Source: Gammaproteobacteria bacterium
GTDB lineage: Bacteria; Pseudomonadota; Gammaproteobacteria; Pseudomonadales; JADFDG01
Length of the DNA stretch: 24,000 nt
Assembly (NCBI GenBank): GCA_018262975.1
Contig: JADFDG010000006.1
Span: 121,137-145,136 of the forward strand
Direction of reading: 5' to 3'
The notes beneath the pieces are model-generated. The model had not been told where the DNA came from and did not search any database. It saw nothing but the letters and a program-made list of their open reading frames with translations. The translations under genes were made by a program, and so were the position numbers. Positions 1,927 to 21,584 of this stretch are shown in pieces. Position 1 is the first letter of the stretch; the number at the start of each line of letters is the position of its first letter.

Positions 1927-3084
1927 TTACTTGCGATCCTTGAGGGCGACGAACTTCTGGTCTTCCGGACCGGTGTAGTTCGCGCTCGGGCGGATGATCT
2001 TGCCGTCGATGCGCTGCTCGATCACGTGCGCGCTCCAGCCGGAGGTGCGGGCGATGACGAAGAGCGGAGTGAACATCGCGGTCGGAACGCCCATCATGTG
2101 GTAGCTGACGGCGCTGAACCAGTCGAGGTTCGGAAACATCTTCTTGATTTCCCACATGACCGACTCAAGGCGCTCGGCGATGTCGTACATCTTGGTGTTC
2201 TTCTCTTCCAGCGACAGCTGGCGAGCGACTTCCTTGATGACCTTGTTGCGCGGGTCGGCAACCGTGTAGACCGGGTGGCCGAAGCCGATCACGACTTCCT
2301 TGCGGCCCACGCGCTCGCGGATGTCCGCTTCTGCTTCGTTCGGGTTGTCGTAGCGCTTCTGGATCTCGAAGGCCACTTCGTTGGCGCCGCCGTGTTTCGG
2401 GCCACGCAGCGCGCCGATGGCGCCGGTGATGGCCGAGAACATGTCGGAGCCGGTGCCGGCGATGACGCGCGAGGTGAAGGTGGAGGCGTTGAACTCGTGC
2501 TCGGCGTACAGGATCAGCGAGGTGTGCATGGCGCGCACCCAGCTGTCACGCGGCTTTTCGCCGTGCAGCAGGTGCAGGAAGTGGCCACCGATCGAGTCGT
2601 CGTCGGTCTCGACGTCGATGCGCTTGCCGTTGTGGCTGAAGTGGTACCAGTACAGCAGCATCGAACCCAGCGATGCCATCAGCTTGTCGGCGATGTCACG
2701 CGCGCCCGGGTGGTTGTGGTCGTCCTTCTCCGGCGACAGGCAGCCCAGCACGGAAACGCCGGTGCGCATGACGTCCATCGGGTGGGCCGACGGCGCCAGC
2801 TGCTCGAGGGCGGCCTTGACGCCGGCCGGGATGCCGCGCAGCGACTTCAGCTTGGCCTTGTAGCCAGCCAGCTCGGCAACGGTCGGCAGCTTGCCGTGCA
2901 CCAGCAGGTGGGCAATTTCCTCGAACTCGCAGGTGGTGGCGACATCGAGGATGTCGTAGCCGCGGTAGTGCAGGTCGTTGCCGCTGCGGCCGACGGTGCA
3001 CAGCGCGGTGTTGCCGGCGGCGGTGCCGGACAGGGCAACGGATTTCTTCGGCTTCGGCAGGTTGGTTTGCTGGGTATCGCTCAT
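1927..3084 (-). CDS. prpC: 2-methylcitrate synthase
   Basis: Track ORF 1927..3102 starts at a TTG. Trimmed to ATG 3084, which is preceded by AAGGAGAG-AAAA (complement of 3085-3096). Citrate-synthase family motifs: [21 protein letters not shown]. It is flanked by prpB and acnD. Confidence 0.93.
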
Positions 3085-3106
3085 TTTTCTCTCCTTAAAC
3101 AATTCT

Positions 3107-3213
3107 GTAGAGAGGGGGCCATGCCCCCGACGCTCTTCGCTCTTCGTAGAGAAGGGGCCATGCCCCCGATACTCCTGAAGGGCAAAAGCGTCGGGGGCAT
3201 GGCCCCTCTCTAC
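3107..3213. repeat. REP cluster A: three GTAG-type REP units between prpC and prpB
   Basis: Units are 3107-3130 (GTAGAGAGGGGGCCATGCCCCCGA), 3146-3169 (GTAGAGAAGGGGCCATGCCCCCGA) and, inverted, 3191-3213 (TCGGGGGCATGGCCCCTCTCTAC). Each has a GGGGGC/GCCCCC 6-bp stem around a CAT/ATG loop. Two GCTCTTC heptamers (3132-3145) precede unit 2. Confidence 0.9.
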
Positions 3214-3225
3214 ATGGGGATGGGG

Positions 3226-4110
3226 TTACTTTTTCTTGCTGAACAGCTGGTCGATCTTGTCTTCGTACGAGTGGTAGTTCAGGAACTCGTACAGTTCCTT
3301 GCGCTTCTGCATCAGGTCGAGGACGTTGACCTGGGTGCCTTCCTTGCGCACGGCCTCATAGACGGCCAGCGCGGCCTTCTGCATGGCACGGGTGCCCGAC
3401 AGCGGGTACAGCACCATGGCGATGCCCTGCTCGCCCAGTTCCTTCGTGGTGTAGTACGGCGTGTCGCCGAACTCGGTGATGTTGGCCAGCACCGGCACCT
3501 TCACGGCGTCGCACACCTTGCGGTACATGGTGATGTCGGTCATGGCTTCGGCGAAGATCGCGTCGGCGCCAGCTTCCACGTAGGCGCTGATGCGATCGAC
3601 CACGCCATTCAGGCCTTCCTTCTGCAGCGAGTCGGTGCGGGCCATGACCACGAAATCAGCGTCGGTCTTGGCGTCAACGGCCGCCTTCACGCGGTCGACC
3701 ATCTCGTCAACGGAGACGATTTCCTTGTTCGGACGGTGGCCGCAGCGCTTCTGGGCGACCTGGTCCTCGATGTGCACCGCAGCGGCGCCGGCCTTGATCA
3801 TTTCCTTGATCGTGCGCGCGATGTTGAAGGCGCCGCCCCAACCGGTGTCGATGTCCACCAGCAGCGGGGTGTCGACAGAGGCCGTCACGCGACGCACGTC
3901 GGTCAGCACGTCCTCCAGCGAGGTGATGCCGAGGTCCGGCAGGCCGTAGGAATAGTTGGCGACGCCAGCGCCGGAGAGGTAGATGGCGCGGTAGCCGACC
4001 TTGGTGGCCATCATCGCCGCATAGGCGTTGACAGTGCCCATCACCTGCAACGGCTTCTCCTCGCGGATCGCCTGGCGGAAACGGCCGCCGGCGGTGAGTT
4101 TCTGCGTCAT
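3226..4110 (-). CDS. prpB: 2-methylisocitrate lyase
   Basis: Track ORF 3226..4227 begins inside REP units. Trimmed to ATG 4110 ([32 protein letters not shown]...), preceded by AAGGAGAG-AATAC (complement of 4111-4123). Isocitrate-lyase/PEP-mutase family signature: [13 protein letters not shown]. Confidence 0.93.
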
Positions 4111-4150
4111 GTATTCTCTCCTTCTGCGTTGGTGTTGCTTTAGTTTCTTC

Positions 4151-4171
4151 GCTCTTCGCTCTTCGCTCTTC
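4151..4171. repeat. Heptanucleotide tandem repeat (GCTCTTC)x3 abutting the GTAG end of a REP unit
   Basis: Copies at 4151-4157, 4158-4164 and 4165-4171 are identical. The same heptamer occurs x2 at 3132-3145, and x1 (as GAAGAGC) next to REP units at 17990-17996 and 21553-21559. Confidence 0.85.
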
Positions 4172-4241
4172 GTAGAGAGGGGGCCATGCCCCCTATCTCC
4201 CCGATGATTCAAAGAGCTCGGGGGCATGGCCCCCTCTCTAC
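4172..4241. repeat. REP cluster B: inverted pair of REP units between the GntR regulator gene and prpB
   Basis: 4172-4195 is GTAGAGAGGGGGCCATGCCCCCTA. 4218-4241 is TCGGGGGCATGGCCCCCTCTCTAC (inverted). Together they can form a long composite hairpin. Unit 2 overlaps the regulator's stop codon. Confidence 0.9.
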
Positions 4242-4951
4242 ATTGGCGTTTGTTCGTGTTCGTTCAGGTGGCGTTCGATGTTCTGGCGGGCGGAACTGAC
4301 GTGGCGGCGCATCAGCATCTCGGCCAGGTCGCCGTCGCGCGCCTCGATGGCTTCGACGATGCGCAGGTGCTCGCCGAAGGCCTTCTGCGGGCGGTTGGCG
4401 TAGGCGCTGAACTGCTGGCGGTACATGCGCACCAGGTGGTACAGCTCGCCGATCAACAGGTCGGTGAGCGCCCGGTTGTGCGAGCCCTTGATGATCCGGT
4501 AGTGGAAGTCGAGGTCGCCTTCCTGCTGGAAGTAGGCAGTGTCGGCCTGCAGCGCCTCGTCGCGCTCGTGCTCGGCGAGCAGGGCCCGCAGACCGGCGAC
4601 CTCCTCCGGCGTCATGTGCATGGCCGCCAGGCGTGCCGCCATGCCCTCGAGGGCTTCGCGGACGTAATAGATCTCGATGAGCGCCTCGTGGGTCAACGAG
4701 GCGATGCGGATGCCGACGTGGGGGGTGCGTTCGACCAGCTTGCGGGATTCGAGCCGGCGGAGGGCCTCCCGCAGGGGACCCCGGCTGGTGCCGAAGCGCT
4801 CGGCCAGTTCGGTCTCCCCTACCCTTGAGCCCGCCGGAATGTCGCCACGGATAATGGCCGACTGCAGGGCCTCGAAGACCCGGTCGGCCGCCGTGCGTGC
4901 GGTGCTCTCGTCAGGATCGAACTGGGTGGTCACTGGCTGGATTGTCGACAA
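4238..4951 (-). CDS. GntR/FadR-family (FCD-type) transcriptional regulator of the prp operon (PA0797/PmiR-like position)
   Basis: Track ORF of 237 aa. Winged-HTH region: [34 protein letters not shown]. All-helical C-terminal ligand domain. It sits directly upstream of and co-directional with prpB. The start is uncertain: the track start is a TTG (4951) lying inside a 12-bp palindrome with no SD, and GTG 4933 is an alternative. Confidence 0.85.
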
Positions 4952-5032: not shown

Positions 5033-6835
5033 CTAGATAGGACTGCACACCGAGGCATTGTCCACGGTCACCTGCCCGTAATAGGTGGGCACACGCCGGG
5101 CAGCATCCGCCGCCGCATCGACCAGGTCGTTCTCGACGATGTTCTTCAAGACGCTACCCAGGTAGGCCTCGTCGTCGAACCACTCAACCCGGTAGGGACA
5201 GGGGTCATCTTCCGGCCGGCAACTCTTGCTACGCAACTCGCCACGAGCAACGTCGTACACCACCGAACCCAGCGCGTCGCGGCCCAACGCCGGCGTCCCC
5301 AGCAGCAGGCCATAATCCGGGTGAGCCGGCTCGTAGATGGCCAGGCGCAGCGTCATGTAGGGGGTTTCCGCGCCCTCGGCGCCATCGAGGAATACGTTAC
5401 CAACCTGCCCGATATAGAACTCCGGCGTACCATCACCGTCGCGCAACTCACCACCCACCACCTGCACGTCTGAGCAGTCGAAGTCGACGTCACTGACAAT
5501 GTCCCCGGACGCCAGCATGCGGAAGAACATCGGTCGCGGCGTTTGCGCAGCCAGATAGGTCGAACTGGTGCGCTGCGTGTCGGTCACGAGATCTCCATCG
5601 GGATAACCCTTGTAGATCACGCCCACCGTCCGCGGCAGGAAACCGGACGGCAACAGCGACAGGTCGATGTCCGGCGTATTGAGATCGCGGGGTGCCAGGT
5701 AGGCATCACCCGAGAACTCGTTGCCGTTGAAGGTGAACATGCCCACGTGATCCGAATCGATCACGTATGTCGGGGGTACCCGGGAATTGTTGTCCGGATA
5801 CAGGTCCAGCAAGTTGCCGAACAACCAGTCGTTGACCAGATTGCCCGACACCATCAACTGGTCTCCGCCGTTCAGGTCGAAGCGCAAACCGCTGGTGGCC
5901 ACGACGCCATGCTGCAGCGCGCCAGCCGCCGTGATGGCACTGTAATCAGCCAGCGTGCCGACGTTCACGATCTTGGTCGCCGGATCCGTCGACTGGTCGA
6001 TGATGGTGTAAACCGCCAGACCGGCCAGATGCCCGGTGCGGGACATGGCCATGCTCGTGGCACCACTGAACAACCGGGTCTGGGTAAGGTCGGAGTCGAT
6101 CATCGACGTAGCGGTCCGATAGATACCAGAACGCGCCCGCAGCAACGAAGCATCGGTCAACTCCGCTGCCGCCAGCACATCCAGTACGGTGCCACCGCGA
6201 CGCAGTTGCTGGCCAACAGGTAACTCGATCTCCTCTACCACGGCCTCGAGTTCAAAGGCGAAGACCGAGGGCGAGTCGTCCAGCGACAACAGGTTTGCAT
6301 ACGCTGCGAACGCCAGGTCCACCTCGTCGCTGATCACCAGGACGTCACGCCCCCCGGAAGGCGGTGCCTCCAGCGAAATCAGCAAATTGAAGGTGTTGGT
6401 CGTCCGTTTGTCCGTGCTGTCCACGGTCGTGCCATTGAGGGTTCCGGGTGTCACCGTGACGTAGTTACGCGAGTCCTCCAGCGAACCATCTGTGCCAAAG
6501 ATCGACAGATCCACTTCACCCAATTTCAGTTCGCCCGGATAGCCCACGTAGAACGACACCGTGGTGCCGCGCGGGCAAACAAACCGGCCGTCGCCATCGG
6601 TTTCACCGGAAATTGGCAGTTGTCCGGTTTCCGAGCACAAGTACGACAGGCCAGCCACGGGCCGGTCAAGGTAGAAGTAGCCCGCGATATTGGTGTCGTC
6701 ATCGGGGTCCAGGTCGTTGCCCCCGCCGTCGTTCACCGGCGCGCCGGAGATGCGCTCCTCGGGGGCAATATCACACCCGGCCAGTCCCGCCGAAAGCAGC
6801 ACAGCCACCAGCAGCGGCACTACACGAAACTTCAT
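5033..6835 (-). CDS. Large lipoprotein, function unknown (last gene of the locus; FilF-like position and size)
   Basis: Track ORF 5033..6943 trimmed to ATG 6835, with GAGG 6 nt upstream. Lipoprotein signal: MKFRVVPLLVAVLLSAGLAG|C. ~600 aa, acidic, with several Cys pairs (YLCSE/FVCPRG, FDCSD, SKSC..DPCPY, VCSPI). It starts 8 nt after the upstream gene's stop. I recognise no catalytic motif. Confidence 0.8.
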   Translation of the reverse strand: MKFRVVPLLVAVLLSAGLAGCDIAPEERISGAPVNDGGGNDLDPDDDTNIAGYFYLDRPVAGLSYLCSETGQLPISGETDGDGRFVCPRGTTVSFYVGYPGELKLGEVDLSIFGTDGSLEDSRNYVTVTPGTLNGTTVDSTDKRTTNTFNLLISLEAPPSGGRDVLVISDEVDLAFAAYANLLSLDDSPSVFAFELEAVVEEIELPVGQQLRRGGTVLDVLAAAELTDASLLRARSGIYRTATSMIDSDLTQTRLFSGATSMAMSRTGHLAGLAVYTIIDQSTDPATKIVNVGTLADYSAITAAGALQHGVVATSGLRFDLNGGDQLMVSGNLVNDWLFGNLLDLYPDNNSRVPPTYVIDSDHVGMFTFNGNEFSGDAYLAPRDLNTPDIDLSLLPSGFLPRTVGVIYKGYPDGDLVTDTQRTSSTYLAAQTPRPMFFRMLASGDIVSDVDFDCSDVQVVGGELRDGDGTPEFYIGQVGNVFLDGAEGAETPYMTLRLAIYEPAHPDYGLLLGTPALGRDALGSVVYDVARGELRSKSCRPEDDPCPYRVEWFDDEAYLGSVLKNIVENDLVDAAADAARRVPTYYGQVTVDNASVCSPI

Positions 6836-6843
6836 TTCTGGCC

Positions 6844-7761
6844 TCATTTCGCCTGCAGGAATTCCAATGTGACATGGCCGCCCACCGCACTGCCGGACGG
6901 CTGGCCGGGACGACAGGCAGCAGGCAACGACTTGCGCGCCCACTCGCCCTCCACCACGACCACGCCGGCATCGCGCCCGAGCACCGGGGGAACAGCAATC
7001 TCCGTACTCACCCTAGCGTAGGCGAACAAGGTCTCGGGTATGGATTCGGTCGCAATGTTGTAAACAACGGACATCACGTGCCCGGCGCCGTCGAGCAGGG
7101 CCACTACCACGTCCGGCGGAGGCCCGCGCCGCCCCAGGGCCTGGACTCTCAGGCGTACCGTACCCACCGGCAAGGGCAAACGGTAACCGGCATAGCGCCG
7201 CGATTCCTGGAGGGACTCGCCCAGCACCGGGAATGCCAGTTCCTCGCGCCGCTGCGCCCCGCCTCGAGCCAGCAGGTGCCCCAGCGACACACCGCCCGGG
7301 CAAGCCAGCAGCCTGGCCGAAACCTGCCTGGCAGGCGCTGCTGGCACCCCGGCACTGGCGATTCCACTGTCACCCATCCCCAGTTCCGAGGCAGTGACCA
7401 CCCCTACCCCACCATCGGCACGCGGGATGGTATAGAAGCGCTCGCGATTGCGCTGTTCGACCGACTGCTCGAACGCGTCGACATCAGTGAATTGCTCGCC
7501 GCCAAAAACAGTCTGGGTGGGTGGGGAATCGGGGGTTGGAGACGTGGCCCCCTCACCGGGAGAAGTGGCCGGAGCAGAAGACGTTGCGGGCATGGCACCG
7601 TCGCCGCGCGCCGCGGGGACAGGGACGTCGAGAACCATGCGATTGCCGGCGGCATCGACGAAGACGACGGTGCCCGCCTCGCCCTGCCCGGCACCCGGCG
7701 ATTGGCAGCCGGGCAGGAACAAGGGCAGCAAAAGGATCGTGGCAAGGATACGCAGGTTCAC
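6844..7761 (-). CDS. Lipoprotein with Pro/Ser/Thr-rich linker, function unknown (FilE-like position)
   Basis: Track ORF 6844..7857 starts inside REP units. The best start is GTG 7761: (M)NLRILATILLLPLFLPG|C, with a lipobox. The alternative is ATG 7788, inside the loop of a REP unit (MAPSLQNRAVNLRIL...). Linker: SSAPATSPGEGATSPTPDSPPTQ. No clear SD. Confidence 0.7.
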   Translation of the reverse strand: MNLRILATILLLPLFLPGCQSPGAGQGEAGTVVFVDAAGNRMVLDVPVPAARGDGAMPATSSAPATSPGEGATSPTPDSPPTQTVFGGEQFTDVDAFEQSVEQRNRERFYTIPRADGGVGVVTASELGMGDSGIASAGVPAAPARQVSARLLACPGGVSLGHLLARGGAQRREELAFPVLGESLQESRRYAGYRLPLPVGTVRLRVQALGRRGPPPDVVVALLDGAGHVMSVVYNIATESIPETLFAYARVSTEIAVPPVLGRDAGVVVVEGEWARKSLPAACRPGQPSGSAVGGHVTLEFLQAK

Positions 7762-7772
7762 GGCGCGGTTCT

Positions 7773-7871
7773 GCAGAGAGGGGGCCATGCCCCCGATGCT
7801 GTTCGTAGAGAGGGGGCCATGCCCCCGATTTGAATGGCGAAAGAGCATCGGGGGCATGGCCCCCTCTCTAC
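7773..7871. repeat. REP cluster C: three REP units inside the locus, between the FadL-like gene and the next lipoprotein gene
   Basis: Units are 7773-7796 (GCAG variant: GCAGAGAGGGGGCCATGCCCCCGA), 7805-7828 (GTAGAGAGGGGGCCATGCCCCCGA) and, inverted, 7848-7871 (TCGGGGGCATGGCCCCCTCTCTAC). They fill most of the 114-nt gap 7762-7875. Confidence 0.9.
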
Positions 7872-7875
7872 AGAG

Positions 7876-9558
7876 TCACCAGGTGGTGCGGTAGGCGAAG
7901 CCGAAGTACATGATCTCGGCTTCGGTCTTGATGTCCAGGCCGCCGTAGGGGTTGTAGACAACATTGTCCAGGCCAGAGCAGTTGGCGTTGCAGCTAGTGT
8001 CCGCCGGGATGCTGTCCTTCGAGTGTACATACGAGAACGTGACGTCAACCTGCGAATCGCGATCCCACTTGTAGCCCAGGCCCAGACCATAGAGCACTGC
8101 CTCGTTGATCGGTACCAGCGGGCTGCGCTTGTCGTCAGGAATGGCTGACGCGCGCGGCTCGTAACCCAGGCGCAGCGTAAGACGATCCGTGAAATCCCAT
8201 TCCAGGCCCATGCCCAGGCTCCAGACGCTTTCGTAGCCCAGCGGCAGGCTCATGGAACTCTGGGTGACGCCCGGCGCCAGCAACCGCGCCAGGCCCAGCG
8301 CCGCAACGCTGCGGTCAAACTTGACGTTGAAGGCACTCCACTCGCTGAAGTCAGTCCAGCCGAGATCCATGTTGACCTTCCAGCGCGGCAGGAAACGGTA
8401 CTTGATACCGGTCTGCAGGTGCGCCGGGTACGTCAATTTCATCGACAACAGGCCGGTCTCCTCCTTCGGCACGAAACTCGGCATGCCGAGTACCGCAAGC
8501 GCGATCGCCCCGGTCGGCGATCCGCCAATGGAATTCAGCAGGTCGCGGGTGGGGTCCTCATAGGTGATGGTGTACTTGCCCTTGAGGTTCATCTTCGCTT
8601 CGGACTGCCACACCAGGCCCCAGGCAAAATTGTCGCTGGGCTCCCACAGCACGCCGAGGTTGTAGGTCGGCGACATGCGCTGTTCCATCGTGAGATCCAT
8701 CTTGGCGAGGCTCTCGAACGGATCCAGGCCCTCCTCTGCACCGCAGGCACCGAAGAGGAAGATGTCCAGCACGATATTCGACTCGCCGCGGAACGGCGCG
8801 CAGATGTCCTCATCGAGTACCCGCGCAAAACCGAGCAACTCGTTGGGCGTACGGAAATCCGTCTGCAGGGAAATCGCCATGTATGACAGGCCCACCGAGC
8901 CACCGACCGACCACCGGTCGTTGATCTGCCAGCCGAGCGACGGTGACAGGTAGGTGACGCGCTCAAGCGCAACCCGCTCACCGAGGAAGTTGCCGGGGTC
9001 GTCCGGCGCGCGGTGGAAACCGGCGATCATCGGCGCGTAGATGCCGTTGGCGAAGGTGAACTTGGAGCCAGCAGGCTTGATCGAGATGGCAGGCAGCGGG
9101 CCACCACCAACCGGACCCGGCGGCAGATCCACAACCTCGTCGATCACCGGCACGTACAACGAAACACCCTGCACGCTGCTGCGCCCGGTCTTGAACTCAC
9201 GGCAGTAGTCCGCGCCATCGTCGGACGGATCCGCGCATACCACCGGGTCATCGGAGAACCCGAATACCTCATACCCAGGCGGCGCGGTGAACTCCGAGTT
9301 CAGGGCAAAATCGGCCGCCAGAAACTGCAGGTCAATCCTGCGCCCTTCAAGCTTGGCAAGTCCCGCCGGGTTGAAGTGGATAGCGCTGATGCCCGGCGGG
9401 TCCGCGGTCACCGCGTTACCCAGCGCCATCGCGCGCGGATCCATCGCAATGTTGGTTGCCAGTTGTGCAGTGGCTGCCTGCGACACCAACAGTGTCGAGA
9501 GCACAGCCCACCGCAGACGCCCCTGCAAATTGATCATGCTCGGCCCTGTCCTATGCAT
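7876..9558 (-). CDS. Outer-membrane transport protein of the FadL/OMPP1/TodX family, enlarged (~555 aa) (FilD-like position)
   Basis: Track ORF of 560 aa; the alternative start is ATG 9537 (MINLQGRLRWAVLSTLLVSQAATA|QL signal peptide). FadL-type N-terminal hatch motif: ALGNAVTADPPGISAIHFNPAGLAKL. Beta-strand-rich sequence ending with the aromatic OMP terminus FGFAYRTTW. Confidence 0.85.
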   Translation of the reverse strand: MHRTGPSMINLQGRLRWAVLSTLLVSQAATAQLATNIAMDPRAMALGNAVTADPPGISAIHFNPAGLAKLEGRRIDLQFLAADFALNSEFTAPPGYEVFGFSDDPVVCADPSDDGADYCREFKTGRSSVQGVSLYVPVIDEVVDLPPGPVGGGPLPAISIKPAGSKFTFANGIYAPMIAGFHRAPDDPGNFLGERVALERVTYLSPSLGWQINDRWSVGGSVGLSYMAISLQTDFRTPNELLGFARVLDEDICAPFRGESNIVLDIFLFGACGAEEGLDPFESLAKMDLTMEQRMSPTYNLGVLWEPSDNFAWGLVWQSEAKMNLKGKYTITYEDPTRDLLNSIGGSPTGAIALAVLGMPSFVPKEETGLLSMKLTYPAHLQTGIKYRFLPRWKVNMDLGWTDFSEWSAFNVKFDRSVAALGLARLLAPGVTQSSMSLPLGYESVWSLGMGLEWDFTDRLTLRLGYEPRASAIPDDKRSPLVPINEAVLYGLGLGYKWDRDSQVDVTFSYVHSKDSIPADTSCNANCSGLDNVVYNPYGGLDIKTEAEIMYFGFAYRTTW

Positions 9559-9582
9559 CTTCGCCGGTGCCCGTGCGGAAGA

Positions 9583-10653
9583 TCACTTCTTGAGGCCGGA
9601 AATGTCGATCGGCAGCGAAATGCCGATAGTGACGTCCGAGGCCTCTTCGGTCAGGCCAAACCCGAAACCGACGTTGACGATACGCTTGGGCGACATCCGG
9701 ATGCCTACCGACGTACTGAAGGAGGCAGAGGTCGAATCCTCGGAGCCGACAAAGTCCCCGTTGCTGAACAGGTACTCGCTCTGGAAGGCATAGCTCTGCT
9801 GGTAAGACGCACTGACCGACAGGTCGTAGGACAGCGCGTAGGCCATGCCCATCGAAAAGCTGATGGAATCCCCCGGATGGAATTCGGTCAGGACGCGATC
9901 ACCGCGCGCCTGGTCCAGGTCGGTGACATCAAAACCCATGGTGTAGCTGACACTACCGAAGACCACCGCCGGGTCGATCACCTTGCTGACGGAGGCACCA
10001 ACGGAGCCCGCGTAATAGCCCTTGCCGGAGGAGAGATCGGTATTCGGGTTGATCTTGTAAGGGCTGTCACCGGTGGCGGTCGATGCCGTGGCGAACAGGG
10101 TGGTGACCGGCGCGCCGCGCTTGAGTGCGAACGGCTGCCAACGCATGCCAAACGACACGTCGCCCAGCGCCGCGCCGGAAACATCCTTGGCAGAGTCGTA
10201 CTTGAACACCAGCGGCAGGCGCACGTTGGCAGTCAGGTTGTTCCAGATACCGTAGTCGAACGAGAACGAGTTGGAGAATGAATGCTGCGCATCCTGCTCG
10301 ATCAGGAAGCGACTGATGCTGCCGCTGTCATTGAAGGCGATGTCGATGCGGTCGTTGCGGAAGTAGGAGTAATCGACCGAGAAATCCAGCGCCATCTCGC
10401 CGGACTTGAGCAGCGAATACTGCTTTTCGGCAGCCTGGAATACTTCCTCGAGGTTCTTCTCCGCGGTGACGTCGTCTTCCTTGGCAGTGAGTGCCTCCCG
10501 GGCCACGTCAGCGGTCGACGCGGGAGCCGCCGGCGTAGCGGCCGCCGGCGGGACTTCAGACGTCGCAGCCGGCGCGTCCTCGGCATGGACCGCGGGCACC
10601 ATGACAGCCATGACAAAGGCGGTCATCCACGAGGTACGGGCAAATGTCAGCAT
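9583..10653 (-). CDS. Secreted protein with Ala/Pro-rich linker, short predicted helix/coiled coil and C-terminal beta-barrel-like domain (putative OMP; FilC-like position, FapF-like architecture)
   Basis: Signal peptide: MLTFARTSWMTAFVMAVMVPAVHA|ED. Linker: APAATSEVPPAAATPAAPAST. Helical segment: EDDVTAEKNLEEVFQAAEKQYSLLKSGE. About 250 aa of alternating-hydrophobicity strands follow (SFSNSFSFDYGIW, SISFSMGMAYALSYDLSVSASY, IVNVGFGFGL). The C-terminus (ISGLKK) lacks the usual terminal aromatic residue, so OMP status is inferred. Confidence 0.7.
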   Translation of the reverse strand: MLTFARTSWMTAFVMAVMVPAVHAEDAPAATSEVPPAAATPAAPASTADVAREALTAKEDDVTAEKNLEEVFQAAEKQYSLLKSGEMALDFSVDYSYFRNDRIDIAFNDSGSISRFLIEQDAQHSFSNSFSFDYGIWNNLTANVRLPLVFKYDSAKDVSGAALGDVSFGMRWQPFALKRGAPVTTLFATASTATGDSPYKINPNTDLSSGKGYYAGSVGASVSKVIDPAVVFGSVSYTMGFDVTDLDQARGDRVLTEFHPGDSISFSMGMAYALSYDLSVSASYQQSYAFQSEYLFSNGDFVGSEDSTSASFSTSVGIRMSPKRIVNVGFGFGLTEEASDVTIGISLPIDISGLKK

Positions 10654-10718
10654 CTCTACGCGTCCTTCTTGTTGTTCTGTTGCATCACGCCGTCAACGGG
10701 CACCCGGCACACCACCGC

Positions 10719-11528
10719 TCAGTGGTTGTAGTAGGTGCGCAACGGCGCGTTGATGATTTCCAGCTTGCCTTCGGCATTCTCGACATAGATCGGCACCAGC
10801 GAGCTCGCGCGGTCGGCTTCCACTTCGCGCCCCGGCAGGAACACGTCCTGGGTAGCGAAGGCCAGGTGGCGAATGGTGCTCTCTTCCACGTAACGCAAGT
10901 CGGAGTCGGCGATATCCAGTTCACGCTTCGGCTCGAAGCCGTTGGGGAACACGATGAACAGCACGTTGTCGAGCCAGACTTCCTCGAAGCGTTCGATCGG
11001 GAAGGAAATATTGCCGAGCGCCGGATCTGCCACGAATACGCGGCCGTCGCGGAAGCCCTTAACCACGACAAAATGCTTGAAGCCGCCATAACCGATCGGC
11101 GCGATCGCCGGGTGGTCAAGCACGACGAGATCCTTGGTGGTAGCACGGAAGCCGCCACTGGGGTGACCGAGCGCGGTCACCAGACGCTTCATGTCGAGCA
11201 ACGAAAAACCACGGCGTTCGACGATCTTTTCGGTTTCACCAAAGCGCAACAGACCCTCCATGATCTGCCGTTCCTGGAACTGGCGACCGAGGTAACCGTT
11301 GAGCAAGGTGGTAAGGGCCGCGGAACCACAACTGTAGTCATATGCCTGACGAACAATGCCATGGTATTTAACGACACTGTCGGGCTTCACAGCGACATTG
11401 CGCTCGGGAATATCGACAAGGCGACCCGGATGATCGTAATGCACCACGCCTTCCGGCTGGTCCTCGACCACCGCGATATTGTTGATCGCCACGTAAAGCA
11501 TGATGGCGCCTGCCAAGACGGCAAACAT
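10719..11528 (-). CDS. Stand-alone, N-terminally membrane-anchored peptidase C39-like cysteine peptidase (FilB-like position)
   Basis: Track ORF of 269 aa. N-terminal hydrophobic anchor: MFAVLAGAIMLYVAI. C39 motifs: QAYDYSCGSAALTTLL (catalytic Cys context), GFKHFVVVKG (His), VFVADPALG (Asp). No ABC-transporter domain is fused or adjacent. Confidence 0.8.
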   Translation of the reverse strand: MFAVLAGAIMLYVAINNIAVVEDQPEGVVHYDHPGRLVDIPERNVAVKPDSVVKYHGIVRQAYDYSCGSAALTTLLNGYLGRQFQERQIMEGLLRFGETEKIVERRGFSLLDMKRLVTALGHPSGGFRATTKDLVVLDHPAIAPIGYGGFKHFVVVKGFRDGRVFVADPALGNISFPIERFEEVWLDNVLFIVFPNGFEPKRELDIADSDLRYVEESTIRHLAFATQDVFLPGREVEADRASSLVPIYVENAEGKLEIINAPLRTYYNH

Positions 11529-11676
11529 CGAACCCCCGGCCGTGGGAGGCTGCCTGCCCGGCCGGGCAAAACAGCCAATTTCTTGTTATGACGCGCTAGG
11601 TTAGCGACGGCAAGCATGGCGCCGCAACCCGGCCTGTGTAGACTTTTGTAATGCCAGATGTCGGGCACCACAATGC

Positions 11677-11704
11677 AAAAAGCCCGGCCGAAGCCGGGCT
11701 TTTT
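11677..11704 (-). terminator. Rho-independent terminator immediately after the first FilA-like gene (bidirectional shape)
   Basis: The minus-strand RNA reads AAAAAGCCCGGC-UUCG-GCCGGGCUUUUUG. That is a 7-bp GC stem, a UUCG tetraloop and a U5 tail, ~16 nt after the TAA at 11721-11723. Confidence 0.8.
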
Positions 11705-11720
11705 GTGGAGCAGGCGCGAA

Positions 11721-12584
11721 TTACGGCTTGCCGGAGATCGTGATCGTGGTGCCGTTCAGGTTCAGGCCCAGGATAGACACGTCGCCGATGACATCCGTGC
11801 TGGTGCCGAGGTACGCATCGGTCAGCAGCATGTCGATACCGGTCGCGCTACCCAGCGAGCCGACTTCGACCACCAGACCAGCGCCGGTCACGTTGATACC
11901 AACCGCACCAACGGCCAGCTGCGTGGTGGCGTTGTTGTTGTCGGCGATAAGGACGTTGGCGGCACCCAGCGAACCGGTGCTGTTAACGTCGTTCAGCGCG
12001 AAGTTGGCGATGCTGATACCACCGGTGATGGTGGTGCTGAGCGCGATCATGTGCGAGGTGCTGGCCGTGGCGGCACCGCCGGCGTCCTGCAGCTCGTTGC
12101 CCAGCTGGATGTTCAGGGTGGTGGCGCCCAGGGTGATGGTGGCAGAGTTCATCACGGTGGCGTTGAAGGCGGAATCCCAGTTCGACGTAACGTCGTCACG
12201 GCCGGAGTTGCCCACCTGGATGGCACCGGTGGTGATCGAAGTGCCCGTCGGGATGGACACGGCAACGTTCAACGTGGCGGTACCTGCGGCACCGGCCACG
12301 GTCTGGTCACCGGCATCGATGTTGATGCCGATACCGCCGACGCCGGTTACCAGCGCAAAGTTGTCGATGCGGATGGCACCGTCAGATGCCGCACCGGCAA
12401 AGCCGCCACGATCGTGGACGATGATGTCACCGCTGATTCCGGCAACCGGGGTGTCGATCTGGATCTGGATACCGTCCTGACCAGTCACGCCGGACAGGGT
12501 GGCGTCCTCGAGGGACTCAAGCGAGAAGCCGGCAACCGGAACGGAAGCGATCACGGCAGCAAGCGCCAGTTTCTTGAAGGTCAT
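11721..12584 (-). CDS. Secreted Gly/Thr/Ala/Asp-rich repeat-like protein, putative fibre subunit, paralogue 1 (FilA-like; I believe these are annotated DUF6160)
   Basis: Track ORF of 287 aa. GGAGAA SD 6 nt upstream. Signal peptide: MTFKKLALAAVIASVPVAGFS|LESL. Conserved block ESLEDATLSGVTGQDGI. No Cys. C-terminus: LNGTTITISGKP. Codon choice is rich in GGT/GTT/CGT by eye. Confidence 0.85.
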   Translation of the reverse strand: MTFKKLALAAVIASVPVAGFSLESLEDATLSGVTGQDGIQIQIDTPVAGISGDIIVHDRGGFAGAASDGAIRIDNFALVTGVGGIGINIDAGDQTVAGAAGTATLNVAVSIPTGTSITTGAIQVGNSGRDDVTSNWDSAFNATVMNSATITLGATTLNIQLGNELQDAGGAATASTSHMIALSTTITGGISIANFALNDVNSTGSLGAANVLIADNNNATTQLAVGAVGINVTGAGLVVEVGSLGSATGIDMLLTDAYLGTSTDVIGDVSILGLNLNGTTITISGKP

Positions 12585-12660
12585 TGTTGTTCTCCGAGTT
12601 TTACGATTCTGATTATTGTGCGTCGCAACAGCCGGTCACCACAGGTGAGCACGTGTCCGG

Positions 12661-12688
12661 AATCTAACACACTGGATACATTCCGCAA
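12661..12688 (-). promoter_or_regulatory. Candidate sigma70 promoter for FilA-like paralogue 1
   Basis: The minus strand reads TTGCGG (12688-12683), a 16-nt spacer, then TAGATT (12666-12661), ~75 nt upstream of ATG 12584. This is pattern match only; other AT-rich candidates exist nearer the start. Confidence 0.25.
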
Positions 12689-12772
12689 CAGCCCTGCAAC
12701 AACCGTCCGTCGTCGACCACTGGACATCGCTGCACCCCCCGGAACTCTCCAGAGGGCGCAACGCTCACTTCA

Positions 12773-13654
12773 TCACTTACCGGATACGAGGATCGTGCCG
12801 GTATTGATCTGCAGGCCCGCCATCTCGATGTCACCCACGTAACCCGGGGTGGTGGTGCCGAGGTAGACACGCTCCATGCGCACGTCCAGGCCATTGACCG
12901 CATCACCCACCTGGTTCAGGGTCACCAGCAGGCCGTCGGCAGTGCCCACGGTGTCGTCCTGGATGTCCACGCCAACGTCCACGGTCAGGTTCTCCGAACC
13001 GACGGCAAGGCCGCCGTCCGTCACGGTGATGGTGCCGGCACCGATGGCGCCGCCGCTGTTGGCGTCACGCACCGCGCCACCGGTAATGACCAGACCGCCA
13101 CCAATCTGGGTGTCGATCGAAATCATGTGGCCCTGCGGTTCGCTGGCCAGCTGGATGTTGACGGCGGTCTGGCCCAGGGTGACCGTCGCGCTGTCAACCA
13201 CTGCCGTCGGGTTGATGTTGTTGTAGCCCCACGCCGCGGCTTCGTCGCGGTTGGAGTTGGCAACCGAGATGGAACCGGTCTGCAGCACGGTGCCGTTGGG
13301 AATCTCCACGAACACGTTCAGCGTCGGGCCACCGGCGCCGCTGCTGTCCACCGAGTCGTCGCCGGCATCGATGTCAACCGCGATGGCGTTGCCACCGGTG
13401 TCCAGCCCAAAGCCCTGGATGACAATCGCGCCATCAAAGGTGTGGGTCGCGGCGGCCGCCACGCTGGCCAGGCCCGTCAGGCCGTCGGTGTCGTGCACGA
13501 TGAGGTTACTGGTCACATCGAGGTCGAGCTCGATGTGAATACCATCCTGGCCGGTCACGCCGGACAGGATGCCGTCGTCCAGCGACTCGACGGCGTAGGC
13601 GCCACTGGAAACAGCGGCGATGACGCTGGCAAGCACAAGCTTCTTGAAGGTCAT
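12773..13654 (-). CDS. Secreted Gly/Thr/Ala/Asp-rich repeat-like protein, putative fibre subunit, paralogue 2 (FilA-like)
   Basis: Track ORF 12773..13861 trimmed to ATG 13654, with GGAGAAG 6 nt upstream. Signal peptide: MTFKKLVLASVIAAVSSGAYA|VESL. Same conserved block (ESLDDGILSGVTGQDGI) and same C-terminal ending (INTGTILVSGK) as paralogue 1. Confidence 0.85.
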   Translation of the reverse strand: MTFKKLVLASVIAAVSSGAYAVESLDDGILSGVTGQDGIHIELDLDVTSNLIVHDTDGLTGLASVAAAATHTFDGAIVIQGFGLDTGGNAIAVDIDAGDDSVDSSGAGGPTLNVFVEIPNGTVLQTGSISVANSNRDEAAAWGYNNINPTAVVDSATVTLGQTAVNIQLASEPQGHMISIDTQIGGGLVITGGAVRDANSGGAIGAGTITVTDGGLAVGSENLTVDVGVDIQDDTVGTADGLLVTLNQVGDAVNGLDVRMERVYLGTTTPGYVGDIEMAGLQINTGTILVSGK

Positions 13655-13775: not shown

Positions 13776-16553
13776 CTACCGGACGCGTCGCCGCAAGCCG
13801 GCCAGCAGAACCCACAGCATCGACAGGAGCGGCAGCGCACCGCCTGCAATCCCGCCAACACCCTTGATCGTTACCGCAGACACGTCGGTCACGCGGACCG
13901 GCGTCGCTACCGGCTGTACCGGGCCTGCGGGCCCGTCCACGTCGGCGTAGGAAACTGCCGACGCCTGCACGCGCACCGCGGCACTGATATCCAGCTTGGG
14001 CGGCTCGTTCATCTGCGGGAATTCCACCAGCACGTCCATGGTCACCGATTGACCGGGCTGCAACACGGTATCCATGAACTGGCAGCTGGCAGAGCGCTGG
14101 TCCTCACCCCGAGTGCAATCGGTCGAGTCAGGGCCAAAGAAGTTGAGTACGCGCAAGGGCAGGTCCACCGCCAGCGCAACAGTTGGCCGCTGCAACACGG
14201 TGGTGCCGGTATTGGTGAATGTCACCTGCCCGGTCAACTGCTGGCCGGCACCACCGACTTCCGGCAGGTCGACCTGTAACCCCGCCCCGTAACTGGAGAT
14301 GTCGTCATCAATAATCGCGACCGATGCCGTCCATGGTGTGCCAAGCACCACCGACGGGGTCGAGGGATTTGCCAGGACCACCAGCAGCGACTCGCGCGCC
14401 TCAATGACCGTGTCGTTGTACACAGCGAGGTTGACCGGAATGGCGGCAACACCAGGCTCGAAGGTGAGTGTACGGGCCGCCGACTCGTAATCACTACCGG
14501 CCACGGCCGAGCCAGGCCCATCCTGCAACTCGAGCGTGAAAGTTCCGGCCGCGTTCGGCGAATCGAGTACGACCATGAAGCGCGCCTGCGCCCCGATGGC
14601 GGCCTCGCCAACCTCGTCCACCAGCCGTACAACACTGACCTGGTGGGCCACCGTACACCGCAGGCCATAGCCCAGCTGCGGCAACAATGGATGCGTCGTG
14701 GTGACGAGTACGCGCGCCTCGAACGCACCGAACTCGCCCGGCTTGCAGCGAAAATCGAGATTGAAGGCCCCTGCCCCGTTGACCACCGTCGCCGGCAAGG
14801 CATCGACCAGCTCGAAGCGATCAGGGTTTGCACCGTCAATCACCACCGAGGTGATTTCCCAGTCAGCACCGGTGGTGTTGTAAAAGCTGATCGGCCTGAC
14901 AGCGCCGGCGCCATAGGAGACCGTACCGAACTCGAGGTAATTGCCATAAGCAGGGATGGACACACCCGTCGCGGTTTGCGCAGTCAGGTCCTCGAGCTGG
15001 ACACGCACTGTACCGCCACTGGCACCGACCAGCAGCGGGTCCCCGGAGACCACGCGCACGTCGAACTCGCATACGCGGAACTTGCGCTGCAGGGAAACAC
15101 CCCCGAAAAGCAACTGCGGGTCGACCATCCAGATTTGCTGGGTTTGCCCGGCAGCGAACTCGAACACCTGGTCGGGATACGCGCAATCCTCGCCGATGCC
15201 ACCGGCAAATCCATCCCCGTTGTCGCGCAGGCTGAGCACCACCGTGGTGGTCCTGTCCGGGGCGAACTGCAGGCCGAGGTACACGGTGTGCGGGGAGGAC
15301 GTGGTGTTCAGCGGCAACGACATGGGCGACAGGCCGAACAACGGCTTGACCGTCGCACCCATCTGGCAGGCCTGCAAGTCCGCGAGCTTGCGGCCATGCT
15401 GGTCGCCTTGGGCGCACAGCGCACCCGGCACCGCCAGGTACGGGTAAAAAACTTCGATCAGCGGATGCACACCGGTGGCAAAGGCACCGTATACCGTCTG
15501 GTTACGATCATAGAGGAACGAGGTACCGGGAATGGGAATATCGCTGCGCACCTGCAACTCGGCCGCCGCCAGGTCCACGCAACCACCGGGATGCTCGGCG
15601 AAGGAATACGTTGCAGCCAGCGACGAACCGGGCGCGCACGCGAGGTCGGTGCCCGCCACATCCAGGCCGTTGTCGGCCAGCACGGCGCCGGAGAGGCTCA
15701 GCGCGCCGGCCAGGTAAACACCCCCACCACTGGCGGCCTGCGAGCGGCCGACGGTGGTGAACGCCAGGCTTGCGCTGGCACCGGCAGACACGTACAGCGA
15801 ACCACCCAGGTCCGCGACAGCATTGTTGGCCAACGTGGACGCGCGCGCATCCAGAGTGCAGTCATCACAATAGATACCGCCGCCATCGGAACCATTGCCC
15901 AGCGCCTGGGCGAATGCCACTTCCGAACGCACGAGTGACAGGGAACTGCCCGGCGCAGCGTAGATCGCCGCACCGCGCACGTTTTCCACCAGCGGGGGCG
16001 CCTTGGCCAGCACCACTGCAGACTCGTCAAGCGTCACCGTAGCGCCCGCACCGATGCGCAGGCCACCACCCTCGGTTTGCGTGCTGCCGTTCTGCAGGCC
16101 AACGCCGCGCAGGTTCAGGATCACCCCCGGGGCGACATCAAGGATACGGCCAAGCCCTTGCGCGTCGATGACGGCCCACGGCGCGCCGCCCCACAGCGTG
16201 AGATCATCAGCAACGTCCAGGTCACCGACGGCGGCGCTGCTCTCGTCAGAAAAGTCGCTGCCGATTTTCACCCGCGTCTGCGGCAGGATGATCGTATCGG
16301 CGCCATTGCCCCGGGCACACTCGATCGAACCGCCGTAGGAATCGGTGTTGGCGTTGACCAGTGCTTCGCGAAGACTGCAGCCATCGCCGATCACCTGCGC
16401 GTCGGTTGCAGTCGAGACCACGATGGTCTCTGCCCGAACGGACGTGGAGAGCAGAAGGACCGAGGAAAAAGCCAGGACGAGGCCACCCCCGCACCGAAGG
16501 CGCGCGGACGTCCCGAAATACGAACGGAATAAGGAGCCCAACGACACACCCAT
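13776..16553 (-). CDS. Large secreted adhesin-like protein: CSLREA-type N-terminus + right-handed beta-helix (PbH1-like) repeats, Ig-like 'choice-of-anchor'-type region, Calx-beta domain, C-terminal Gly-rich/TM/Arg-cluster sorting-signal-like tail
   Basis: Track ORF 13776..16679 trimmed to ATG 16553 (MGVSLGSLFRSYFGTSARLRCGGGLVLAFSSVLLLSTSVRA|ETIV). GDGCSLREALVNANTD. Repeated GGG(L/I/V)Y...L motifs (GGGIYCDDCTL, GGSLYVSAGASASL, GGGVYLAGALSL). Calx-beta signature: GSAVAGSDYESAARTLTFEPGVAAIPVNLAVYNDTVIEARESLLVVL. Tail: KGVGGIAGGALPLLSMLWVLLAGLRRRVR*. Confidence 0.85.
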   Translation of the reverse strand: MGVSLGSLFRSYFGTSARLRCGGGLVLAFSSVLLLSTSVRAETIVVSTATDAQVIGDGCSLREALVNANTDSYGGSIECARGNGADTIILPQTRVKIGSDFSDESSAAVGDLDVADDLTLWGGAPWAVIDAQGLGRILDVAPGVILNLRGVGLQNGSTQTEGGGLRIGAGATVTLDESAVVLAKAPPLVENVRGAAIYAAPGSSLSLVRSEVAFAQALGNGSDGGGIYCDDCTLDARASTLANNAVADLGGSLYVSAGASASLAFTTVGRSQAASGGGVYLAGALSLSGAVLADNGLDVAGTDLACAPGSSLAATYSFAEHPGGCVDLAAAELQVRSDIPIPGTSFLYDRNQTVYGAFATGVHPLIEVFYPYLAVPGALCAQGDQHGRKLADLQACQMGATVKPLFGLSPMSLPLNTTSSPHTVYLGLQFAPDRTTTVVLSLRDNGDGFAGGIGEDCAYPDQVFEFAAGQTQQIWMVDPQLLFGGVSLQRKFRVCEFDVRVVSGDPLLVGASGGTVRVQLEDLTAQTATGVSIPAYGNYLEFGTVSYGAGAVRPISFYNTTGADWEITSVVIDGANPDRFELVDALPATVVNGAGAFNLDFRCKPGEFGAFEARVLVTTTHPLLPQLGYGLRCTVAHQVSVVRLVDEVGEAAIGAQARFMVVLDSPNAAGTFTLELQDGPGSAVAGSDYESAARTLTFEPGVAAIPVNLAVYNDTVIEARESLLVVLANPSTPSVVLGTPWTASVAIIDDDISSYGAGLQVDLPEVGGAGQQLTGQVTFTNTGTTVLQRPTVALAVDLPLRVLNFFGPDSTDCTRGEDQRSASCQFMDTVLQPGQSVTMDVLVEFPQMNEPPKLDISAAVRVQASAVSYADVDGPAGPVQPVATPVRVTDVSAVTIKGVGGIAGGALPLLSMLWVLLAGLRRRVR

Positions 16554-16641
16554 AAAGTTATTATTCTCTTTTGTTGTCGCAGCAGGCCCGGCCAACCCCG
16601 GCCAGATGCCCCAGTGCAGGCTGCGCACCAAACGGGTCCTT

Positions 16642-16679
16642 GCCGGTTGATCATAACCGGCAGGCCCACCTTGCCCCAA
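16642..16679. promoter_or_regulatory. Divergent control region between the adhesin gene and pabB: inverted repeat plus promoter-like hexamers
   Basis: Inverted repeat GCCGGTT-N6-AACCGGC at 16642-16661. The minus strand reads TTGGGG (16679-16674), an 18-nt spacer, then TATGAT (16655-16650); the -10-like element lies inside the inverted repeat. An AT-rich patch (GAGAATAATAACTTT) lies just before ATG 16553. Confidence 0.3.
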
Positions 16680-16726
16680 CTGTCGCAGATACCGGCTATC
16701 CGATCAATCGCCCGGGAATCAACGAG

Positions 16727-17932: not shown

Positions 17933-18021
17933 TCGGGGGCATGGCCCCCTCTCTACAAGAGCGGTCGGGGGCGTAGCCCCCTCGCTACGAAGAGCGGTCG
18001 GGGGCGTGGCCCCCTCGCCAC
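17933..18021. repeat. REP cluster D: three same-orientation REP units in tandem (32-33 nt period), progressively degenerate
   Basis: Units are 17933-17956 (TCGGGGGCATGGCCCCCTCTCTAC), 17965-17988 (TCGGGGGCGTAGCCCCCTCGCTAC) and 17998-18021 (TCGGGGGCGTGGCCCCCTCGCCAC). Linkers are AAGAGCGG and GAAGAGCGG; the array begins 19 nt after the pabB TAG. Confidence 0.9.
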
Positions 18022-21526: not shown

Positions 21527-21584
21527 TCGGGGGCATGGCCCCCTCTCTACAGGAAGAGCAGTCGGGGGCAACGCCCCTCGCTGC
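21527..21584. repeat. REP cluster E: two same-orientation REP units upstream of the acyltransferase gene
   Basis: 21527-21550 is TCGGGGGCATGGCCCCCTCTCTAC. 21562-21584 is the degenerate TCGGGGGCAACGCCCCTCGCTGC. The linker AGGAAGAGCAG contains the GAAGAGC heptamer. Confidence 0.85.

Follow-up and report, generated by a model that had tools for sequence, protein, structure and literature searches.

The outer-membrane barrel FapF of the Pseudomonas Fap system is known to export polypeptides and requires FapD (PMC5557850), and its N-terminal coiled coil is followed by a long linker (PMC5557850, PMC6173795). The fil operon is conserved in Acinetobacter baumannii, where the orthologues A1S_0690-0695 are annotated as 'putative type III pili' and are over-produced in pellicles (PMC3203104, PMC4256060, PMC5376624), and where FilF, reported in the outer membrane and in vesicles, has been tried as a vaccine antigen, immunisation giving 50% protection (PMC4751259). 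Acinetobacter Fil itself is known from annotation, pellicle proteomics and vaccine work only. We found no Fil assembly mechanism in the open-access literature, in line with the first-pass annotation of the DNA described here. In Marinobacter hydrocarbonoclasticus, the FadL-like outer-membrane protein AupA and its adjacent, interacting partner AupB are both needed for micellar alkane uptake, and the pair is widespread in Alcanivorax and also occurs in related oil degraders (PMC5989066). Here we analyze seven genes within a window of 24,000 nucleotides, the whole stretch of DNA examined, from contig JADFDG010000006.1 of a gammaproteobacterium; all coordinates are those of the window. Judged by sequence, the genes are a divergent fil operon in a host related to Alcanivoracaceae. 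The Fil system is not undescribed, having been modelled already as NCBIfam FilA-F and Pfam DUF6160 and FilE_C, and the locus is a divergent addition to a family that is named and modelled but mechanistically unexplained.

Open reading frame (ORF) listing and translation gave seven co-directional minus-strand genes at exactly the coordinates of the first-pass annotation, each encoding a product with a Sec signal, a lipoprotein signal or a membrane anchor, as that annotation had stated. The locus comprises the following features.

filA1, 12773..13654, minus strand: 293 amino acids; Sec-exported, Cys-free, acidic (pI about 4), all-beta by prediction; candidate cargo or subunit
filA2, 11721..12584, minus strand: 287 amino acids; paralogue of filA1, 46% identical
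Intrinsic-terminator-like hairpin, 11677..11704, minus strand: directly 3' of filA2, read from the sequence
filB, 10719..11528, minus strand: 269 amino acids; membrane-anchored C39 cysteine peptidase, FapD-like
filC, 9583..10653, minus strand: 356 amino acids; outer-membrane barrel resembling FapF, preceded by a Pro/Ala-rich tail and a conserved helical segment
filD, 7876..9558, minus strand: 560 amino acids; FadL/TodX-family outer-membrane barrel
Three copies of a repetitive extragenic palindrome (REP)-like element (GGGGGCATGGCCCCCTCTC), 7776..7868, no strand assigned: filling the filD-filE spacer
filE, 6844..7761, minus strand: 305 amino acids; lipoprotein of the MalM-like FilE family
filF, 5033..6835, minus strand: 600 amino acids; lipoprotein in which four cysteines are conserved in addition to the lipidated one

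The assignment of the first five genes rests on direct matches to NCBIfam Fil models, which aligned FilA1 (E = 1.5e-57) and FilA2 (7.3e-51) over their full length and also identified FilB (9.2e-87), FilC (9.1e-113) and FilD (5.3e-238). Pfam placed DUF6160 on both FilA N-termini (3.1e-10 for FilA1 and 1.7e-09 for FilA2; 40.6 and 38.3 bits against a cut-off of 27), Peptidase_C39 on FilB (2e-16) and Toluene_X on FilD (7.7e-68; 229 bits against a cut-off of 29.7). The 600-residue lipoprotein reached only 0.005 with the FilF model, and the 305-residue lipoprotein had no direct Pfam or NCBIfam match. All five NCBIfam Fil models scored under their curated cut-offs (195 against 220, 291 against 475, 377 against 630, 791 against 970 and 16 against 390), these models being typed 'exception' with cut-offs far above the scores seen at this locus; the genes therefore represent a divergent lineage. 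Source records label the relatives only as 'DUF6160 family protein', 'transporter' or 'hypothetical protein'.

The two lipoproteins were assigned through a comparison set of 80 related loci from species-representative genomes, found with the FilC alignment as query. Iterative profile searches confined to these loci found a single counterpart of the 305-residue protein in each of 74 loci and a single counterpart of the 600-residue protein in each of 51. The FilE-family gene starts a median of 3 nt past filD, and the FilF-family gene about 950 nt past it. When the profiles were rebuilt without the window's own clade, a hold-out profile of 68 positional FilE homologues still matched the window FilE (E = 3.5e-15), and one of 46 positional FilF homologues matched the window FilF over nearly its full length (2.3e-33). 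The positional genes of Moraxellaceae, in turn, match the NCBIfam models directly (FilE, 1e-82; FilF, up to 4.9e-115), and FilE-family members match MalM (8/18), FilE_C (5/18) and NCBIfam FilE. Profile links, position and gene order thus identify the seven genes as filA1, filA2, filB, filC, filD, filE and filF, in agreement with the first-pass annotation, which had matched their order to a 'filA-filF putative pilus system', and the profile searches it had proposed returned the Fil, FapD, FapF, DUF6160, C39 and Toluene_X models at the values given here and below.

By tblastn, filB, filC and filD are contiguous and in the same order in 80/80 loci, wherever the contig reaches. Since each gene has homologues and this order is kept throughout, the genes are real rather than chance ORFs. 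The loci are distributed over Alcanivoracaceae (29), Moraxellaceae (20; Agitococcus, Aquirhabdus, Fluviicoccus and metagenome-assembled genomes), Pseudomonas and Atopomonas (10), Oleiphilaceae (8) and Hahellaceae (1), with 12 unclassified, and several derive from oil, diesel or plastic enrichments. This suggests a bias to hydrocarbon or lipid degraders, which is confounded by phylogeny and by the query-centred ranking of matches. On inspection of the ORFs, a secreted protein of 270-440 residues lies right behind filD in every locus, and a lipoprotein of 600-750 residues is next in line in Alcanivoracaceae and Moraxellaceae; ORF inspection and profile searches found no FilF in the Pseudomonas, Atopomonas, Oleiphilaceae and Hahellaceae versions. 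The FilE of Moraxellaceae and Pseudomonas is secreted without being a lipoprotein. Between one and five filA copies stand immediately upstream in 64/80 loci, several of the others being contigs that end before filB, and the copy number ranges from 0 to 5 across all loci. Because filF, and a filA next to the locus, are missing in some groups, the invariant core is filB-filC-filD-filE.

Individual loci depart from this plan in other ways. Alcanivorax sp. 1008 carries two separate fil loci in one genome (L032 and L038, on contigs 37 and 43). Several Alcanivorax loci have a filA-filB gap of about 2 kb, which in Alcanivorax sp. S6407 (L007) is occupied at 6986-8896 by a gene for a 636-residue protein with tetratricopeptide repeats and a sulfotransferase domain (Sulfotransfer_3, 1.3e-40); the FilA encoded beside it (5902-6912) has a poly-Thr/Asn insertion, and a link between this sulfotransferase and FilA modification is possible. 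An Oleiphilus locus (L075) has no adjoining filA, has lon, hupB and ppiD upstream of filB, and carries at 14380-17424, on the minus strand and convergent with filE, a gene for a 1014-residue lipoprotein with a Big_5 domain and a GHSLG motif resembling a lipase nucleophile elbow.

The predicted topology of the products was read from their translations (a slash marks the expected cleavage site). FilA1 (MTFKKLVLASVIAAVSSGAYA/VESL), FilA2 (MTFKKLALAAVIASVPVAGFS/LESL), FilC (...VPAVHA/EDAP) and FilD (...SQAATA/QLATN) begin with Sec signals, FilB with a hydrophobic anchor that would remain uncleaved (MFAVLAGAIMLYVAINNIAVV), and FilE (MNLRILATILLLPLFLPG/C, lipobox LPG/C) and FilF (...LLSAGLAG/C) with lipoboxes. 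When the seven products and the flanking genes were scanned with Pfam and NCBIfam, we detected no ATPase, chaperone-usher, type IV pilin, secretin, ATP-binding cassette (ABC) or membrane fusion protein (MFP), or two-partner secretion family, just as the first-pass annotation had reported.

FilB and FilC are the parts that connect the locus to Fap. FilB matches the NCBIfam FapD model at 2e-29, under its equivalog cut-off of 330, and resembles the C39 peptidase domains of the PCAT and ComA transporters in the Protein Data Bank (PDB); its catalytic residues Q61, C67, H152 and D168 are invariant in 76/76 aligned sequences. FilC matches FapF both in NCBIfam (1.9e-18) and among PDB sequences (5o67, 8e-12). 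An AlphaFold2 model of FilC, with a predicted local distance difference test (pLDDT) score of 70 overall and 72-90 in the barrel, gave FapF as its best Foldseek match (E = 8e-15; template modelling (TM) score 0.66-0.74; 22-24% identity), followed by the COG4313 channel 4rl8 (1e-8; TM 0.60; 14% identity) and then by autotransporter barrels; many FilC homologues carry Pfam Phenol_MetA_deg. In the model, a Pro/Ala-rich tail is followed by conserved helices at residues 47-57 and 62-79, predicted with pLDDT below 50, and then by the barrel, so ordered that the helices occupy the place of the FapF plug helix. The first-pass annotation had described FilC as a 'coiled-coil barrel'; the model offers two short, low-confidence helices directly before the barrel, and a FapF-style coiled coil with a long linker is not established.

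FilD, FilE and FilF have no counterpart in Fap. FilD matches 3dwo (2.6e-10), FadL (1e-6) and TodX (1.6e-4) among PDB sequences and the NCBIfam FadL model (1.2e-10), ends in ...AYRTTW, a typical barrel ending, and has an N-terminal hatch in which 'hfNPAGLAKL' aligns with 'nNPAAMAFI' of 3dwo. The description of FilD as an oversized FadL-family barrel was borne out: at 560 residues, against 421 positions in the Toluene_X model and about 427 residues in PDB chains of Escherichia coli FadL, it is about 130 residues longer than usual. FilF has invariant cysteines at C21, C67, C87, C454 and C597, a pattern that points to a disulfide-bonded protein. Profile searches against PDB sequences found no relative of either FilE or FilF.

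FilA, the presumed cargo, belongs to a family for which a search of 1.84 billion proteins gave 777 cluster representatives at E <= 1e-3. Its members are nearly all stand-alone proteins of 260-370 residues which the profile covers from the first to the last residue, and some long members have the central part duplicated. The family is acidic and rich in Gly, Val, Thr, Asp and Ala (K+R 3%, D+E 10% and Gly 15% over 213 members), and 205/213 (96%) are Cys-free; we take this Cys-poverty as a trait common to other cargoes of narrow outer-membrane channels. The first-pass annotation had called both products a 'secreted repeat protein', a description not supported at sequence level, FilA1 having no significant internal sequence repeat (z = -0.4) and FilA2 only a weak signal (z = 3.8). 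AlphaFold2 modelled FilA1 as an all-beta protein of about 22 strands (pLDDT 79; predicted TM score 0.69). Foldseek searches with this model against the PDB and BFVD gave no match (best E 0.14, TM <= 0.2), the family profile matched no PDB sequence even at E = 10, and FilA matched no FapC, CsgA or pilin family in Pfam or NCBIfam. FilA is therefore not recognizable kin of FapC, CsgA, chaperone-usher or type IV pilins, and the earlier statement that the subunits are unlike FapC and CsgA stands.

Conservation in FilA sits mainly at both ends. Behind the signal peptide lies the motif (M/V/L)22-E-x-(L/M)25-D-D-x-x-(L/M)30-S-x-V33-T-G35-Q36-D37-G38-I39, and the protein closes with G-D-V-E-x-x-G-L-N-L-x-G-T-T-I-x-I-S-G-(H/K); column conservation reaches 97% at G35, 95% at Q36, 92% at D37, 99% at G38, 98% for L/M at position 30 and 98% at G292. 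Pseudomonas and Atopomonas encode a 'mini-FilA' of 143-155 residues that keeps only the N-terminal ~135 residues and the last ~20. Such mini-FilA genes lie at about 8600-9100 in loci L048, L049, L050, L055, L058-L060, L062 and L063, from which filF is also missing. The conserved N-terminal motif is the best candidate for a FilB cleavage site. With a hypothetical cut behind Gln36, hydrophobic residues would fall at -15, -12, -7 and -4 and Gly at -2, which is the double-glycine leader spacing of C39 substrates, and AlphaFold2 places a short helix at residues 27-34; it is this leader-like spacing, together with the predicted helix, that singles out the motif.

The C-termini of FilC (...PIDISGLKK, 9583-9620) and FilA (...ILVSGK or ...ITISGKP, 12773-12800) resemble each other, and neither ends in an aromatic residue, unlike FilD (...YRTTW). 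An aromatic last residue is usual for barrel proteins. The similar endings may reflect chance or a shared recognition element.

Signals around the filA genes bear on the amounts of product to be expected. A GGAGAA Shine-Dalgarno sequence precedes both filA1 (before the ATG) and filA2, and behind filA2 lies a strong hairpin with a T-run (AAAAAGCCCGGC-TTCG-GCCGGGCTTTTT, 11704-11677). In a crude scan, similar hairpins were present between the last filA and filB in 18/72 related loci, including L045 and L041. An automated promoter and terminator scan gave counts not above shuffled controls and missed the filA2 hairpin. The arrangement of these signals is consistent with strongly expressed filA genes and reduced read-through from them into filB-filF, and the strong Shine-Dalgarno sites and the terminator hairpin are what would be expected for an abundant structural product.

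Taking these observations together, we consider it probable that FilA is exported by a route in which Sec translocation is followed by handling or cleavage by FilB, passage of the unfolded chain through FilC without nucleotide hydrolysis, and folding or assembly outside, with FilD, FilE and FilF as anchoring or assisting parts. In such a scheme FilA1 and FilA2 would cross the inner membrane by Sec and remain unfolded in the periplasm. FilB, anchored in the inner membrane with its catalytic domain in the periplasm, would then act on FilA or on the machinery, the putative site in FilA lying between Gln and Asp of the near-invariant (M/V/L)ExLDDxxLSxVT-G-Q-D-G-I segment just behind the signal peptide. 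FilC, as a FapF-type barrel, would take FilA through the outer membrane, after which FilA would fold into a surface structure, its conserved N-terminal module and its C-terminal strand (GDVExxGLNLxGTTIxISG-H/K) perhaps serving as secretion, docking or subunit-contact elements. FilD, the MalM-like and presumably periplasmic lipoprotein FilE, and the large, probably disulfide-bonded FilF would be accessory or anchoring parts without a Fap counterpart. The gene identities, homologies, intact catalytic residues, synteny and lack of a known fold for FilA are observed here, whereas we infer the FilA-FilC pairing, the FilB cleavage site, the topology of FilB, any polymerization of FilA, and the roles of FilD, FilE and FilF.

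Several observations weigh against this export scheme. FilA is predicted, with fair confidence, to be a folded monomer and not a FapC- or CsgA-like solenoid; a Gln at -1 departs from the canonical double-glycine site, and NCBIfam gave no match to any family of double-glycine leaders. The low pLDDT (below 50) of the predicted helical region of FilC leaves neither a plug nor a coiled-coil role established. The second-best fold match of FilC is a COG4313 channel with a proposed role in the uptake of hydrophobic molecules, and an uptake barrel of the FadL type is also what FilD represents. Oleiphilaceae and Hahellaceae keep filBCDE without an adjoining filA. An experimental Fil fibre was not found in the literature, even for Acinetobacter, and no result here shows FilA polymerization; the label 'surface fibre' is unproven, deriving only from the historical name 'pilus' and from over-production in Acinetobacter pellicles.

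On a quite different reading, the locus would serve to take up or contact hydrophobic substrates, FilD and FilC being uptake channels for hydrocarbons or lipids, FilE a partner of FilD in the manner of AupB, and FilA a secreted or surface protein that binds or emulsifies the substrate instead of forming a fibre. We regard this as unlikely. It fits FilD, with its Toluene_X match of 7.7e-68 and retained NPA hatch segment, and the position of filE a median of 3 nt behind filD, which mirrors aupA-aupB (PMC5989066), but a C39 peptidase requires a protein substrate. Likewise, the fold match of FilC to the COG4313 channel (4rl8, 1e-8) and the Phenol_MetA_deg matches of many FilC homologues suit an uptake channel, but FilC is far nearer FapF (8e-15, 22-24% identity) than COG4313 (1e-8, 14%). 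The loci do come largely from groups of oil or lipid degraders (29 Alcanivoracaceae, 8 Oleiphilaceae, Agitococcus, and metagenome-assembled genomes from diesel, oil or plastic), one of them, in Oleiphilus, with the convergent 1014-residue lipoprotein and its lipase-like GHSLG motif; however, these taxa may simply mirror common ancestry among Pseudomonadales sensu lato, and relatives of the query were favoured when matches were ranked. The neighbours of the locus in the window are the prp operon, a chorismate-binding enzyme and a LysR regulator, with no genes for alkane degradation among them. Our search of the open-access literature found no paper tying fil genes to hydrocarbons and none connecting Fil with Fap, the Fap papers making no mention of Fil.

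On another reading, the actual cargo would be FilF, and perhaps FilE, which one of the two barrels would bring to the outer leaflet through a lateral opening of FilD or a barrel-lipoprotein complex, with FilA as a coat or adaptor. The presence of A. baumannii FilF in the outer membrane and vesicles and its 50% protection fit surface exposure (PMC4751259), both FilE and FilF of the window are lipoproteins, and the N-terminus of FilD weakly resembles PorV and PorQ (2.4e-9), FadL-like barrels of type IX secretion that retain protein cargo. The PorV match, however, spans only about 38 residues of generic hatch; Pseudomonas, Atopomonas, Oleiphilaceae and Hahellaceae keep filBCDE without FilF; FilE is a plain secreted protein in Moraxellaceae and Pseudomonas; and the conserved cysteine pairs of FilF imply periplasmic folding. 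Surface display of this kind seems improbable. We give even less credence to FilA being a secreted toxin or bacteriocin-like effector, matured by the C39 peptidase and released by the barrel with no role in adhesion or fibres. C39 peptidases classically mature bacteriocins, and the best, insignificant, Foldseek matches of FilA are the beta-pore toxins lysenin and leukocidin (E 0.14-1.5), but these have TM <= 0.12 and probability <= 0.04, and no immunity gene is evident. One to five filA paralogues, strong Shine-Dalgarno sites and a terminator better suit a bulk structural protein, and the orthologues are made in pellicle biofilms (PMC3203104).

The export of FilA through FilC can also be drawn in a more specific form, which we put forward only tentatively and consider doubtful. 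Fil would then be a distinct ATPase-free outer-membrane pathway, a kin of Fap rather than a form of it, in which the membrane-anchored C39 peptidase would remove, in the periplasm, a second, double-glycine-like leader from the Sec-exported subunit and so license its export by a FapF-type barrel, and FadL-type, MalM-like and lipoprotein parts would anchor or nucleate a non-amyloid beta-fibre of unseen fold by which the cell grips hydrophobic interfaces, such as oil-water or air-water pellicles.

The surroundings of the locus are of a housekeeping nature. Downstream of filF, at 1927-4951 on the minus strand, lie genes for a GntR/FCD regulator, a phosphoenolpyruvate-mutase/isocitrate-lyase-family protein (prpB-like) and a citrate-synthase-family protein (prpC-like); upstream are a chorismate-binding enzyme and a LysR regulator. 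The GntR/FCD regulator stands at the same distance downstream of filF across the Alcanivoracaceae loci, and its neighbourhood to filF appears to reflect synteny rather than function. Immediately upstream of filA1 and co-directional with it (13776-16553, minus strand) is a gene for a 925-residue secreted protein with matches to Calx-beta (9.7e-16) and choice-of-anchor D (3e-7), a weak CSLREA match at the N-terminus, and a Gly-rich, hydrophobic and Arg-rich tail resembling a GlyGly-CTERM anchor of rhombosortase targets. We considered this protein as a core Fil part and rejected it, as it lies upstream of filA in the five closest loci only (L001, L002, L004, L014 and L045; 32-38% identity). No Rfam family or tRNA was found in the window.

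The REP-like palindrome GGGGGCATGGCCCCCTCTC is found 11 times in the window, where chance alone would give 0.05 copies, and all are intergenic.

REP-like palindrome sites, 3110-3167, 4175-4238, 7776-7868, 17935-18018 and 21529-21547: intergenic spacers

The filD-filE spacer measures 114 bp. ATG codons inside the palindrome give spurious N-terminal ORF extensions, for example of filE and prpB; since the ATGs of this spacer lie in palindromes and are unlikely starts, the GTG at 7761 that the first-pass annotation had chosen for filE is reasonable.

The core module is spread over Alcanivoracaceae, Moraxellaceae, Pseudomonas and Oleiphilaceae, and Fil and Fap have a peptidase and an export barrel in common, with FilA as a presumed cargo without a known fold. 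If the export scheme is correct, C39-plus-barrel export would be a recurring pathway and not a peculiarity of Fap, and Fil might link a surface structure to life at oil-water or air-water interfaces.

Among described systems, Acinetobacter Fil is the nearest; it shares all six gene families with the window locus, and their order and orientation agree. The window locus differs from it in its two filA paralogues, in a FilE that is a lipoprotein rather than a protein with the plain signal peptide seen in Moraxellaceae, in its very divergent FilE and FilF, and in a host related to Alcanivoracaceae, not to Acinetobacter. The likeness to curli would lie in nucleotide-independent export, in unfolded Cys-free subunits and, by analogy only, in an N-terminal targeting segment; Fil has no Csg homology and no Curlin repeats in Pfam or NCBIfam, and its channel is of another type. 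Neither the locus nor its flanks contain CsgG/E/F, an usher with a chaperone, a pilin with an ATPase and a secretin, an ABC protein with an MFP, or a TpsB partner. AupA/AupB resembles filD-filE in arrangement, with a FadL-family outer-membrane gene and a co-transcribed partner a few nucleotides behind it; Aup is a stand-alone two-gene operon without a C39 peptidase, a FapF-like barrel or FilA. The COG4313 channel (4rl8) and Phenol_MetA_deg proteins belong to the same broad barrel class as FapF, and are proposed to serve uptake of small hydrophobic molecules, not polypeptide export.

The comparison with Fap goes deeper. Fil has no homologue of FapA, FapB, FapC or FapE among its seven proteins by Pfam and NCBIfam; FilA is not a Q/N-rich imperfect-repeat amyloid like the Fap subunits, and its model has no PDB match; FilC, as modelled, appears to lack FapF's arrangement of an N-terminal coiled coil and a long disordered linker; and three Fil parts, namely a FadL-type barrel, a MalM-like protein and a large lipoprotein, are additional to those of Fap. 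Both systems are Sec-dependent and without an ATPase, and both encode paralogous secreted subunits upstream of the machinery. The first-pass annotation had proposed that the locus reuses the logic of Fap, and of this the pairings of FilB with FapD and of FilC with FapF stand, while the coiled coil in FilC is not supported. On the sequence evidence the link between Fil and Fap is real but partial, with true homology for two parts, the FapD-like peptidase FilB and the FapF-like barrel FilC.

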